Shown: in pieces, positions 7,651 to 12,203 of the stretch
How positions within the stretch are numbered: the stretch's first letter is position 1
Layout of the letters: each line of letters starts with the position of its first letter
Virus record (IMG/VR): IMGVR_UViG_2925908680_000001
Source of the DNA: a virus
Lineage: Duplodnaviria; Heunggongvirae; Uroviricota; Caudoviricetes
Strand: one strand, 5' to 3'
Length of the DNA: 64,000 nt
The notes under the pieces: model-generated
The model's input: only the letters and a program-made list of their open reading frames with translations
Database searches by the model: none
What the model was told of the DNA's origin: nothing
Position numbers and translations under genes: made by a program

Positions 7651-7682
7651 TAACTTTAAATAATTGGCATTATTTAAAGTTA
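7651..7682. other. rox site-specific recombination site (Dre target)
   Basis: taactttaaataat-tggc-attatttaaagtta: 14-bp perfect inverted arms around a 4-bp spacer; equals the reverse complement of rox as I recall it; 150 bp upstream of the recombinase gene. Confidence 0.9.
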
Positions 7683-7834
7683 GGCTATAATCATGTGTAG
7701 ATGAACAGTGTTGACATCACTGAAAATACGTGCCTCGAATCAAAGGTTTGTATTTTGAAAATTAACTTATAGCTACCCTGTCATTTTTATATTTTTCGCG
7801 TAGCGACATCTGTATATAGAGGTGAAATAGTTTC

Positions 7835-8863
7835 ATGAGTGAATTAATTATCTCTGGCAGTTCCGGTGGTTTTCTGCGCAACATTGGCAAAGAGTACCAG
7901 GAAGCCGCAGAAAACTTTATTCGGTTCATGAATGACCAGGGGGCTTATGCGCCGAATACACTGCGCGACCTCCGGTTAGTGTTTCATTCCTGGGCGCGCT
8001 GGTGTCACGCTCGCCAGCTTGCCTGGTTTCCGATCTCACCAGAAATGGCCCGCGAGTATTTTCTTCAGCTGCATGATGCCGATCTGGCTTCGACCACCAT
8101 TGATAAGCACTACGCCATGCTGAACATGCTGCTTTCGCATTGTGGCCTTCCGCCACTTTCGGATGATAAAAGTGTTTCTCTGGCTATGCGGCGCATCCGG
8201 CGCGAAGCGGCAACTGAAAAAGGCGAACGAACAGGCCAGGCTATTCCTTTGCGGTGGGATGATCTGAAACTGATCGACGTCCTGTTGTCCAGGTCAGAAC
8301 GGCTGGTGGACCTGCGCAACCGGGCTTTTCTCTTTGTTGCATACAATACGCTGATGCGTATGTCGGAAATCTCGCGTATTCGCATAAGAGATCTGGACCA
8401 AACAGGTGACACTGTCACGTTGCATATTTCACACACGAAGACAATAACGACCGCAGCCGGGCTTGATAAGGTGCTTTCCCGTCGCACTACTGCTGTGCTG
8501 AATGACTGGCTGGAGGCTTCCGGGCTTCGTGAACATCCTGACGCGGTGCTGTTCCCGCCGGTACACCGTAGCAATAAGGCCAGGATTACGGCAACGCCCC
8601 TTACTGCGCCTGCAATGGAGAAAATATTCAGCGACGCCTGGGTGTTGCTGAATAAAGGAGATGCTACGCCAAACAAAGGAAGATACCGGACGTGGACCGG
8701 GCATAGTGCACGCGTCGGGGCCGCTATCGATATGGCTGAAAAGCAGGTATCTATGGTGGAGATTATGCAGGAAGGAACCTGGAAGAAACCGGAAACACTT
8801 ATGCGGTATCTGCGCCGTGGCGGCGTGTCTGTGGGGGCTAATAGCCGCCTGATGGATTTGTGA
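7835..8863 (+). CDS. dre: Tyrosine site-specific recombinase, Cre family (Dre-like)
   Basis: 342 aa; Cre-like layout including C-terminal WTGHSARVGAA and MRYLRRG segments; adjacent rox site. Confidence 0.92.
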   Translation: MSELIISGSSGGFLRNIGKEYQEAAENFIRFMNDQGAYAPNTLRDLRLVFHSWARWCHARQLAWFPISPEMAREYFLQLHDADLASTTIDKHYAMLNMLLSHCGLPPLSDDKSVSLAMRRIRREAATEKGERTGQAIPLRWDDLKLIDVLLSRSERLVDLRNRAFLFVAYNTLMRMSEISRIRIRDLDQTGDTVTLHISHTKTITTAAGLDKVLSRRTTAVLNDWLEASGLREHPDAVLFPPVHRSNKARITATPLTAPAMEKIFSDAWVLLNKGDATPNKGRYRTWTGHSARVGAAIDMAEKQVSMVEIMQEGTWKKPETLMRYLRRGGVSVGANSRLMDL

Positions 8864-8936: not shown

Positions 8937-9281
8937 TTGCAGAGTCAAATCACGGAATCAAGACGCTTCAAGGTGGATGGTTACACCGTAACCTTCGCCG
9001 CTGGTGTTAAGAACAGTCATGCTGTCGTTGTGTTCGGCATCATGACCGGGCTTGAGGCCGTCCCTGTGTTTACCCTCGAAAAAAACTGGCGAAATCTGGA
9101 GGAAGCAGAAAGCTACGTCCGGAAAGTAACCATCATTGCCGCCGAAAAACTCCTGGCCCACTATCAGGAAAATTATCGCACTATGGTCGAGAAGATTAAT
9201 CTCGCTTTCACTCGCCCCACTACCGGCTTTATCGCACCAGATACTAATGCAGGTCGATATCCTGCAAGGGGGCGTCGGTGA
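8937..9281 (+). CDS. Hypothetical protein (non-ATG start implied by ORF track)
   Basis: ORF track; TTG start. Confidence 0.4.
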   Translation: MQSQITESRRFKVDGYTVTFAAGVKNSHAVVVFGIMTGLEAVPVFTLEKNWRNLEEAESYVRKVTIIAAEKLLAHYQENYRTMVEKINLAFTRPTTGFIAPDTNAGRYPARGRR

Positions 9282-9754
9282 AAACTTATTACCCATCTCT
9301 GAATTGTTACCCGTCTTCCTATCCAGAATTGTCCGGGAAGCTGTTAGCTCTATTAGCTAAAGCACCTACGGAATGGTTTAAGCCAGTCGTTATTAATCCG
9401 CACTTCCAGGATTACGGATCTGTTCGTACTCGTAACGAACTCAAAAACCTACTGGCGCATGGATTCATTCGACACCGTGCCGGGAAAGGCTATCAGTTAG
9501 CGATTGCGCCAGAAGAGGCCGTGCGGCTATTCGCATATCGTGACAGCCAGACAAAAGCTCGGGTAATAGCTCAAATACTTCATAACGGCAGCACCTATGC
9601 CCGCCAGTTTGGCGGCGACACGTCGCAGTTCTTGCGGGCGGTGCGATCGCTGGAGGAGCAAGGAGTTATTGAAAGTTCCTGTCTTCCTGTTCCTACCGTT
9701 CCACATATCAAACGTCGGGTTTACACCTTCACGCAGAGAGCTAAAAAACTATGA
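9278..9754 (+). CDS. Hypothetical protein
   Basis: ORF track; GTG start overlapping upstream stop. Confidence 0.45.
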   Translation: MKTYYPSLNCYPSSYPELSGKLLALLAKAPTEWFKPVVINPHFQDYGSVRTRNELKNLLAHGFIRHRAGKGYQLAIAPEEAVRLFAYRDSQTKARVIAQILHNGSTYARQFGGDTSQFLRAVRSLEEQGVIESSCLPVPTVPHIKRRVYTFTQRAKKL

Positions 9755-10245
9755 TTTACGTAAAAGTGAAACGCCTACATCCGGCAGCAAAACTTCCAGC
9801 TTATGCCACCTCCGGATCGGCGGCGATGGATTTTGAGGCTGTTGAAATAACACCATGCGTCGATAGCAATGGTGAAATTTCCTCAAGCTGGTGGGTGCAT
9901 ACCGGACTGGCTATGGAGATCCCGCCCGGCTGGTGTCTGAAACTCTATCCGCGCTCCGGGTTGGGTTGCAAAAAACATACCCGCCTGGCTAACTGCGTAG
10001 GAATTATCGACTCCGATTATCGCGGTGAAATCATGGCAAAACTGATTGCTGATCCCGGCGGGGAAGGCGTTTGCCTCAAGCCTGGAATGGCTGTTATGCA
10101 AGGCATTTTTGAGCGTGTTGAACAAGTCTCACTAGTCGAGGTTGAGGAACTCAACGAAACGGAACGTGGTGCTGGTGGCTTTGGTAGCACATCGGAAGGC
10201 CACTTTGAAATTAAGCGTTCACCGCTTCAGTACGAAAAGTTATAA
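9751..10245 (+). CDS. dut: dUTPase (deoxyuridine triphosphatase)
   Basis: Trimeric dUTPase motifs GIIDSDYRGEI and RGAGGFGSTS in the translation. Confidence 0.85.
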   Translation: MIYVKVKRLHPAAKLPAYATSGSAAMDFEAVEITPCVDSNGEISSSWWVHTGLAMEIPPGWCLKLYPRSGLGCKKHTRLANCVGIIDSDYRGEIMAKLIADPGGEGVCLKPGMAVMQGIFERVEQVSLVEVEELNETERGAGGFGSTSEGHFEIKRSPLQYEKL

Positions 10246-10259
10246 GCAGAGAAAAGACT

Positions 10260-10910
10260 ATGAATAACATGGCAACGAAAGAGCTTTTTAAGGTCCTTCC
10301 CAAATACAAAGCTCACAAAAACGTTAGTGCATCGAAAATCAAAAATGTTGTTATTTTCGGAGTAACTGATGACCCACTTTGGGGCTGCATCGAACTCGTT
10401 GAACCCAAAGGGGCAACAGTTTGTGTTGACGCAATTTTTTTACAAAAACACCGACCAAAAACTGGCGGGTATCTGATCGTTTATGAAAACGGTTATCTGT
10501 TCTATGCCCCGGAGAAACCATTTGAGCAATGCTATGGCCTGGTTAACGACGCCTCCGAAAATGGGGTATCGCTCAGCATTGAAGGTCACAATGGGGTGAC
10601 ATTCATTACAGCCAGGGACGTAACTATTGCTGTCGGTGGCATCATTACCACACAAGAAGAAATCGACCTTGAAGCAGCCGACTTTTCTGACGCGCTAATG
10701 TGGCTGAAAGAAGGAAAAAATGTAGCTCGACGCGAGTGGAAAGGCGAAAAGCAATTCTGCTGGTTAGTTCTCGCTGGGAGCGTCAATTTACATGACATTC
10801 AGGTTCCTTATGGTGACCATTTTGTGTTGAAAGATGCACAAAATATAAACAGCGTTTGGTTGCCGTCTGTTGATGATTTACTGGCTTGTGACTGGTTTGT
10901 AGTGGAGTGA
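10260..10910 (+). CDS. Hypothetical protein with C-terminal DUF2829-like domain
   Basis: C-terminal FSDALMWLKEGKNVARREWKG ... WLPSVDDLLACDWFVVE fits the DUF2829 signature as recalled; about 120-aa N-terminal extension. Confidence 0.55.
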   Translation: MNNMATKELFKVLPKYKAHKNVSASKIKNVVIFGVTDDPLWGCIELVEPKGATVCVDAIFLQKHRPKTGGYLIVYENGYLFYAPEKPFEQCYGLVNDASENGVSLSIEGHNGVTFITARDVTIAVGGIITTQEEIDLEAADFSDALMWLKEGKNVARREWKGEKQFCWLVLAGSVNLHDIQVPYGDHFVLKDAQNINSVWLPSVDDLLACDWFVVE

Positions 10911-11693: not shown

Positions 11694-11697
11694 CAAA

Positions 11698-11727
11698 AAG
11701 CCCGCTTGGTATGGCGGGCTTCTTTTC
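11698..11727 (+). terminator. Rho-independent terminator
   Basis: gcccgc-ttggtatg-gcgggc stem-loop followed by ttcttttc. Confidence 0.7.
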
Positions 11728-11927: not shown

Positions 11928-12203
11928 CTACTCCGCAGAACCATACAATCTACGTAGCGTGGTAGCAGTAGATGCAGATATCGCCCTTAAAACCTCCTCC
12001 TTACTTACATCACTGCGGGAGAGGATTTCAGAAGGCGATATTTCCTTTAACGACTTTTGCTTCTCTTTGCAGTTCTCGACCAGTTCCGCAGGAATAACAA
12101 ACCTGCTATCAATCGGCACAAGTTCATCAAGCGTTTGTTTGGGTACGTTAAACGTAGGATTCTTGAACACCGCAGATTCGGTTCTTAAGTTAATTTTCGA
12201 CAT
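11928..12203 (-). CDS. Hypothetical protein with Doc-like C-terminal tail
   Basis: C-terminus ...EEVLRAISASTATTLRRLYGSAE parallels the Doc C-terminus ...[19 protein letters not shown] encoded just upstream. Confidence 0.45.
   Translation of the reverse strand: MSKINLRTESAVFKNPTFNVPKQTLDELVPIDSRFVIPAELVENCKEKQKSLKEISPSEILSRSDVSKEEVLRAISASTATTLRRLYGSAE

Follow-up and report, generated by a model that had tools for sequence, protein, structure and literature searches.

Does the gene at positions 10,260 to 10,910 of the viral record IMGVR_UViG_2925908680_000001 encode one more sponge for the nucleotide signals of bacterial immunity, or does the long extension in front of its sponge domain do something of its own? 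The window we analyzed is the whole 64,000-nucleotide stretch of this record, a D6-like element that belongs to the P1 family of phage-plasmids. The open reading frame (ORF) is listed on the plus strand with an ATG start and encodes 216 amino acids plus stop. Its start, MNNMATKELF..., is kept in the homologues and M1 is invariant in their alignment. The initial annotation, made from the letters alone, read the last 90 or so residues as a DUF2829 domain, possibly related to the Thoeris anti-defence sponge Tad2. It considered the N-terminal part atypical of Tad2 proteins and remarked on the dUTPase gene next door. This interpretation is supported, and the published Tad2 papers bear out that the DUF2829 family includes Tad2.

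We lean towards reading the protein as a two-module counter-defence protein of the phage-plasmid. The second module (residues ~135-216) would be a Tad2-family sponge which, by analogy with the solved Tad2 structures, would form a homotetramer through helix alpha1. The interfaces between its protomers would sequester the ADP-ribose-based alarm molecule made by the TIR protein of a Thoeris-type system. Candidate ligands are 3'cADPR/gcADPR, His-ADPR or N7-cADPR. With the signal held in this way, the host effector would never be switched on. The first module (residues ~12-97) is an oligonucleotide/oligosaccharide-binding (OB) fold like that of the decoration protein Dec of phage L, and it would most likely provide a second anti-defence activity, not capsid attachment. 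It could bind another immune signal or an immune protein, and we see it as a candidate additional sponge or accessory module.

It is important to separate what is new here from what is not. The Tad2 call is an existing annotation: the protein is named "DUF2829 domain-containing protein" in RefSeq/NCBI, and the identical protein is encoded on an E. coli plasmid-sized record, CP031767.1 (101,638 bp), with a precomputed Tad2-like Pfam match. In a 2025 preprint that ran DefenseFinder on 2,304 phage-plasmid contigs, "Tad2 AcrIIA7 (anti-Thoeris)" is reported for 93% of the elements of the D6 group and for 56% of those of the P1 group. Within this already annotated family the Tad2 part stands out by its distinctive pocket allele. 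What is new is the identity of the N-terminal extension, and the added value of this work lies in that module, a concrete candidate counter-defence domain with which the protein becomes a variant of the multi-domain sponge theme.

The Tad2 module and its pocket

The Pfam search proposed with the initial annotation gives a significant match over the full profile. Residues 141-215 align to positions 2-73 of 73 of PF11195 'Tad2-like' (formerly DUF2829) with E=4.2e-18 and 66.1 bits, against a score cutoff of 25 bits. A sequence search of the PDB finds MoTad2 9eib (1.3e-9), 8v3e (1.7e-9) and SPO1 Tad2 8sme (2.2e-5), and also matches SptTad2 and HgmTad2/AcrIIA7. The AlphaFold2 model of the whole protein has a mean predicted local distance difference test (pLDDT) score of 70.7, and the Tad2-like domain itself reaches only 57-84. 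The structural comparison that had been suggested nevertheless comes out clearly: Foldseek matches the C-terminal domain of the model to the solved Tad2 folds 9eib, 8v3e, 8wje, 8smf and 8kbj, with E from 2e-6 to 4e-4 and target template modelling (TM) scores of 0.6-0.83. The existence of the ORF is confirmed, and its domain matches lie far beyond chance.

The presence of HgmTad2/AcrIIA7 among these matches raises the explanation that the protein is an anti-CRISPR of the AcrIIA7 type, which belongs to the same Pfam family. What speaks for it is a weak match in sequence and fold. Type II CRISPR-Cas is not known as a feature of E. coli or Salmonella. Neither for HgmTad2 nor for other Tad2 homologues could Li et al. 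reproduce an inhibition of Cas9, and they showed HgmTad2 to be a sponge. We give the anti-CRISPR explanation next to no credence.

The details of the pocket say more about what a sponge of this kind might hold. SPO1 Tad2 is a homotetramer in which dimers interlock along helix alpha1. It binds gcADPR through van der Waals contacts from W25 and W73 and polar contacts from N26 and D79, with further contributions from T78, S76, H71, D67, I63 and T65. The equivalents in HgmTad2 are W21/N22 and S90/T92/D93, and its long beta2-beta5 insertion also binds cyclic dinucleotides. MoTad2 binds His-ADPR, while a second site holds cUMP/cCMP. Between them, the homologues of Tad2 inhibit Thoeris of types I, II and IV as well as CBASS and Pycsar, and Li et al. 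predict the gcADPR site to be functional in ~99% of Tad2 proteins.

In the window protein the domain consists of helix alpha1, IDLEAADFSDALMWLKEGK, which is almost invariant among the homologues, followed by the beta-sheet. The positions that correspond to ligand contacts in the SPO1 Tad2 and HgmTad2 papers are W160, K161, L190, D192, Q194, S198, W200, S203, D205 and D206. Four of these, W160, W200, S203 and D206, are invariant in 27 homologues and are equivalent to the gcADPR contacts W25, W73, S76 and D79 of SPO1 Tad2. The protein shares with the sponges SPO1 Tad2 (Gp34.65), MoTad2 and HgmTad2 the full-length Pfam domain, the fold, the aromatic/acidic core of the pocket and the alpha1 helix. 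It differs from them in its length (216 residues against ~90), in its N-terminal OB domain, and in having a Lys, K161, for the phosphate-contacting Asn (SPO1 N26), with three more contact positions altered: the equivalents of T65, H71 and T78 are D, S and D.

The pocket also differs from the one that is commoner in the same family of phage-plasmids. The window allele reads W-K...D-Q-S...D-D where the commoner P1/D6 allele reads W-N...N-Q-V...G-D, which amounts to four joint changes at ligand-contact positions: N161K, N192D, V198S and G205D. Compared with SPO1 Tad2 or MoTad2, the beta2-beta3 insertion lacks 8 residues, and it lacks 17 compared with homologue P0014, which carries the same N-domain and linker alleles. 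The pocket is probably functional. Because of the four contact changes and the short insertion we expect a shifted ligand preference and no second pocket for cyclic dinucleotides; a cyclic-dinucleotide/cUMP site like that of HgmTad2 or MoTad2 is unlikely.

An OB-fold homologous to Dec

The initial annotation was right to find the N-terminal extension unusual, since stand-alone Tad2 proteins have ~90 residues and residues 1 to ~134 are a genuine extra part. These residues have no Pfam match, even at E<=10. Residues 1-96 are modelled at pLDDT 83-92 within the whole protein, and a model of the N-domain built from an alignment of 95 sequences reaches pLDDT 90.4 with a predicted TM score of 0.82. 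After the Tad2 structures, Foldseek finds Dec (6e3c, E 1.6e-3, probability 1.0). As a check, this sequence of Dec proved 100% identical to the product of the dec gene as annotated in phage L. BLASTP against Dec gives E 3e-5, aligning window residues 65-139 with Dec 59-124 and so running on into the linker segment. Using hhalign against Dec, the probability is 91.9% with the alignment of the P1 group and 97.1% (E 6.5e-11) with the deep alignment of the family. The two domains are 30% identical over 81 structurally aligned residues and have in common the motif P..GGYL....G.L.Y....FE..Y. The N-domain is an OB-fold homologous to Dec.

The domain belongs to a large family with the signature LPxYKCHKxVxAxKI...KHxPxxGGYxVxYxDGYxSxSPxxAFExGY. 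A single-sequence, word-indexed search with the N-domain recovers close relatives only. An exhaustive phmmer search yields 1,710 cluster representatives (some 1,700 clusters counted at 50% identity) and a profile search 923 proteins. The members found by the profile search are overwhelmingly stand-alone hypothetical proteins of 82-100 residues without Pfam domains.

Does kinship with Dec mean that the protein decorates capsids? On that explanation the OB-fold would dock on the phage head in the manner of Dec and the linker would form a trimeric beta-helix stalk, with the Tad2 domain at its tip. The homology is genuine, and the layout is common to both proteins: after the OB-fold comes a segment predicted or known to be disordered in the monomer. 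The linker (residues 97-140 are modelled at pLDDT ~30) has weak BLASTP similarity to the three-stranded beta-helix spike of Dec and is possibly the equivalent of the Dec stalk. Comparing the linker with tail-fibre or other proteins of the window by tblastn gave nothing significant. In addition, the homologue Dolphis gp96 is annotated 'capsid decoration protein', and gp05 of Ralstonia phage GP4 (L004:4992-5267) is a stand-alone OB-like gene between the portal/scaffold and major head genes, beside a CsrA-like regulator. The GP4 capsid has been resolved at 3.7 A, however, and the structure shows only the major capsid protein gp2 and the immunoglobulin-like cement protein gp1, without gp05.

Other evidence also argues against decoration. 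The coat-contact residues of Dec, K30, Y31, Y49, Y71 and E73, align to V31, I32, C55, N77 and Y79, so that none of the five is kept, and Dec in turn is without most of the polar residues conserved in the large family (CHK, KH, Y75, Y79, P84). Where Dec ends in its spike the window protein ends in a Tad2 domain, and its gene lies in the cre-dut-isaA accessory block, outside the head module. The virion proteome of P1 reports no decoration protein, although the reference P1 lacks the gene. The stalk-like linker comes in alleles that can be exchanged for one another, and other fusions of the OB domain with Tad2 have a different linker or lack it. A nucleotide sponge would have no obvious use outside the cell, and a trimeric stalk does not fit a tetrameric Tad2. 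Most members of the family are encoded within arrays made up of small early or accessory genes, and the domain is found fused to cytoplasmic sponges or regulators. Because the Dec coat-contact residues are absent and the members are in such arrays, the family does not look like a capsid protein, and we hold capsid decoration to be improbable.

One of these arrays deserves mention in its own right. On JGI contig Ga0373636_0000465 a gene for an Acb2/Tad1 hairpin (L006:7459-7821) lies ~4 kb downstream of the stand-alone OB-like gene P0315. The small genes of this array all run in one direction, and together they may constitute a cluster for anti-defence.

Fusion partners and the role of the N-terminal module

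Sponges are one of the chief means that phages and phage-plasmids have of silencing immunity based on nucleotide signals (Thoeris, CBASS, Pycsar), and new sponge families have recently been found through the fusion partners of known ones. Sequestin, the 3'cADPR sponge PF21825, was discovered through its fusion to Tad2 and to the CBASS sponge Acb4, PF13876 (bioRxiv 10.1101/2025.07.12.664507). The same work shows that an Acb4-Tad2 fusion blocks both Thoeris and CBASS. The OB-like domain was invisible to that search because the search used Pfam families and the domain has none; one of the Sequestin homologues in the preprint carries a related N-terminal domain, undiscussed there.

We read the family's own fusions in the same way, by a Pfam scan of 50 of its multi-domain members. 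Twelve of the 50 are fused to known sponges, which come from four different families. The partner is Tad2 in P0116, P0124 and P0127, Tad2 together with PF21825 in P0168, PF21825 in P0223, P0243 and P0244, PF13876 in P0109, P0146, P0195 and P0213, and the Acb2/Tad1 hairpin in P0145. This last fusion was located by Pfam; a concatenated pseudo-protein searched against the PDB returned no match. Five members have other Pfam partners (DUF4406, DUF5662, RyR, AlpA, DUF551). The pairing with Tad2 recurs in unrelated phages with different linkers or none: in Klebsiella phage SopranoGao, P0059/60, P0066-P0071 and P0078, as well as in P0116, P0124, P0127 and P0168.

The window protein resembles the natural multi-sponge fusions (Acb4-Tad2 of Pasteurella phage Pm86, Tad2-Sequestin, Sequestin-Acb4) in joining Tad2 through a flexible linker to a second small phage domain. 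That domain occurs also with Acb4, Sequestin and the Acb2/Tad1 hairpin, and P0168 is a triple fusion of OB, Tad2 and Sequestin. Unlike in those fusions, the partner of Tad2 here is no recognized sponge, has no Pfam model and matches no solved sponge structure. Residues 1-100 resemble none of Tad1, Acb2, Acb4, Sequestin, Lockin, TadIV-1 or the Acb5 nuclease in sequence or structure, where TadIV-1 and Acb5 were compared through their published descriptions. Lockin was considered as an identity for the N-domain, as both are beta-rich and the primer-deduced C-termini are vaguely alike, and was rejected on an hhalign probability of 0.5% against Lockin sequences. TadIV-1, which is helical, and Acb5 were rejected from the published descriptions. 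As a separate observation, P0102, P0106, P0109 and P0114 carry the OB-like domain twice in tandem (P0109 has two copies plus Acb4), which hints that the domain may work as a dimer or pseudo-dimer.

From all of this one might go further and propose that the N-domain defines a very large unannotated family of phage counter-defence proteins, immune-signal sponges or binders of immune or trigger proteins, sharing an ancestor with Dec. We put this forward as a tentative idea, and a doubtful one. If the N-domain is active, it would form an unexpected evolutionary link from capsid decoration to immune evasion. In either case the gene reveals a fusion partner that Pfam-based searching has not seen and that is abundant in phages of many hosts.

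A simpler explanation is that the C-terminal domain alone is active as a sponge, while the Dec-like N-domain together with the linker is a passenger, inert or in decay, that serves solubility, stability or expression context. One argument for it comes from phage D6 (NC_050154.1 orf114, L001:2594-3034), where an in-frame deletion has removed the OB-fold. The 146-residue protein that is left begins with the first ~20 residues and continues with a linker allele and then the Tad2 domain (MNNMATKELFKFLPKYKAHK joined to KNGTTVIITDDNG...). Versions truncated or replaced at the N-terminus also exist (P0051, P0056 and the dUTPase-Tad2 fusion P0065), and in several P1/D6 alleles of the N-domain some residues are missing that the wider family keeps without exception. 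Against this, the pairing of OB domain and Tad2 is old, recurring as it does in unrelated phages whatever the linker; the window allele retains 11/11 of the family-invariant residues, including K20, Y71, Y75, Y79 and E89; and the N-domain folds with high confidence (pLDDT 90). We take the passenger explanation seriously and still consider it rather unlikely.

The two-module reading that we prefer has its own difficulties, and they should be stated together. The D6 deletion, with the missing invariant residues in other P1/D6 alleles, means that the N-domain may be dispensable or decaying in this lineage. In the pocket, the N26 equivalent contacts phosphates in both SPO1 Tad2 and HgmTad2, and the HgmTad2 W21A/N22A double mutant binds markedly less (Li et al.). 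Because this residue is K161 in the window protein, binding of the canonical ligand is not assured. We found no binding or plaque assay of the window protein or its P1/D6-type homologues in the papers and supplements searched; its motifs are also absent from the part of the Tad2 papers' supplementary tables that was covered, which is weak evidence. The fusion argument is weakened by the 33 of the 50 multi-domain members whose partners have no Pfam domain. Finally, a structure-guided screen of ~65,000 clusters of short phage proteins by the Sorek lab did not report the OB-like family, a mild sign that the family forms no obvious oligomer with charged pockets.

The phage-plasmid setting and the allele mosaic

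A 3-kb region at this locus aligns with phage D6 across 87% of its length, at 96.6% identity, and the neighbours include genes for a Cre-like recombinase, Phd/Doc and HumD. The genes from cre-like to isaA-like all point in one direction and are tightly packed or overlap (Table 1). Judging from this spacing and from scans for sites, it is plausible that they form a single operon, and the promoter-like and terminator-like sites bracket what is probably a six-gene accessory operon. When the target and its neighbours were scanned with PADLOC and NCBIfam, dut was the one gene recognized.

Table 1. Features of the gene and its surroundings, in window coordinates
Feature	Coordinates	Strand	Basis or remark
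Near-consensus sigma-70 promoter-like site, TTGGCA-16-TATAAT, 11/12	7664..7691	+	Consensus scan; upstream of cre-like
cre-like gene	7835-8863	+	
orf	8937-9281	+	
orf	9278-9754	+	
dUTPase gene	9751..10245	+	15-nt gap upstream of target; Pfam PF00692 E=1.7e-14, PHROG, NCBIfam dut equivalog E=1e-35
Target ORF	10260..10910	+	ORF list of the window
OB-fold domain, residues ~12-97	10293..10550	+	Homologous to phage L Dec
Beta-rich linker, residues ~98-134, ENGVSLSIEGHNGVTFITARDVTIAVGGIITTQEE	10551..10661	+	Predicted disordered in monomer
Tad2-like domain, residues ~135-216	10662..10907	+	PF11195; PDB sequence and fold matches
IsaA-like gene, 258 aa	10917..11693	+	phrog_2326 E 2e-135; D6 note 'similar to P1 gene isaA'
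GC-rich hairpin with T-runs on both strands, bidirectional terminator-like	11695..11724	.	Terminator scan; just past isaA-like

The adjacency to dUTPase that the initial annotation pointed out is real, and it suggests an explanation that has nothing to do with defence: a nucleotide-binding protein working with the dUTPase in phage nucleotide metabolism or regulation. The two genes are probably co-transcribed, a dUTPase-Tad2 fusion (P0065) exists, and some structural neighbours of the OB domain occur in phage proteins annotated as MazG or nicotinate ribosyltransferase. The adjacency is not conserved, however. In the P1-type SJ46 the orthologue lies between ssb and isaA, and the full-length homologue of SopranoGao is gene 3 of an early operon. 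Because SJ46/P1-type genomes place the gene between ssb and isaA, we judge the dUTPase neighbour to be a feature of the D6 lineage and probably incidental.

The fusion does not rescue this explanation either. P0065 (241 aa, E. coli, from a cluster of 15 member sequences) runs from dUTPase ...ETERGAGG straight to ITTQQEEIDLE. Gone are the remaining C-terminal residues of the dUTPase (FGSTSEGH...), the whole OB domain and the greater part of the linker. The junction looks like the outcome of a deletion between the short repeats GAGG/AGG, and the fusion like an accidental derivative and not a design. All characterized members of PF11195 are immune-signal sponges, and we find a role in nucleotide metabolism very improbable.

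The constant neighbour is instead the IsaA-like gene downstream, in the order dut-X-isaA in D6-type and ssb-X-isaA in P1/SJ46-type genomes, where X is the target. Its product has neither a Pfam match nor a sequence match in the PDB. It may be a functional partner of the target or a further accessory or anti-defence gene.

The P1-family orthologues, D6 orf114, SJ46 J46_0048, Ro157c2YLVW and RCS47, sit at the same locus upstream of isaA and carry the DUF2829 annotation. They are 58-69% identical in protein sequence, and the RCS47 copy is broken by an insertion sequence. Orthologues are mosaics in which an N-domain of allele A-H, a linker of allele A-D and a Tad2 loop/C-terminal part of allele A-E have been combined in many ways, while the alpha1-beta2 hinge stays constant. 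We read such free recombination of alleles among phage-plasmids as the signature of an arms race. In complete E. coli genomes a DNA-level homologue is present in 213 of 5,426, and plasmids carry 212 of the 219 places that match. Most of these matches end at nucleotide 511, the point where the pocket alleles diverge. The window's short-loop W-K allele is rarer, reaching at least 80% DNA coverage in 26 of the 5,426. Several recombining Tad2 "pocket alleles" circulate in P1/D6 phage-plasmids, elements that are common in pathogenic E. coli and Salmonella. These alleles suggest that ligand specificity is being diversified at the level of the population.

Two smaller observations belong to this locus and its relatives. 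In P0040 (306 aa, E. coli) a tail-fibre-type N-terminus (Pfam Phage_fiber_2) stands in place of the first ~24 residues, which could be a rearrangement or an artefact of assembly or annotation. In the window itself a 91-aa ORF at 11928-12203 on the minus strand, which is also an annotated gene on CP031767.1, separates the pdcA-like gene from doc. D6 lacks this ORF and has the two genes side by side, which explains part of the 13% of the 3-kb query that D6 does not cover.

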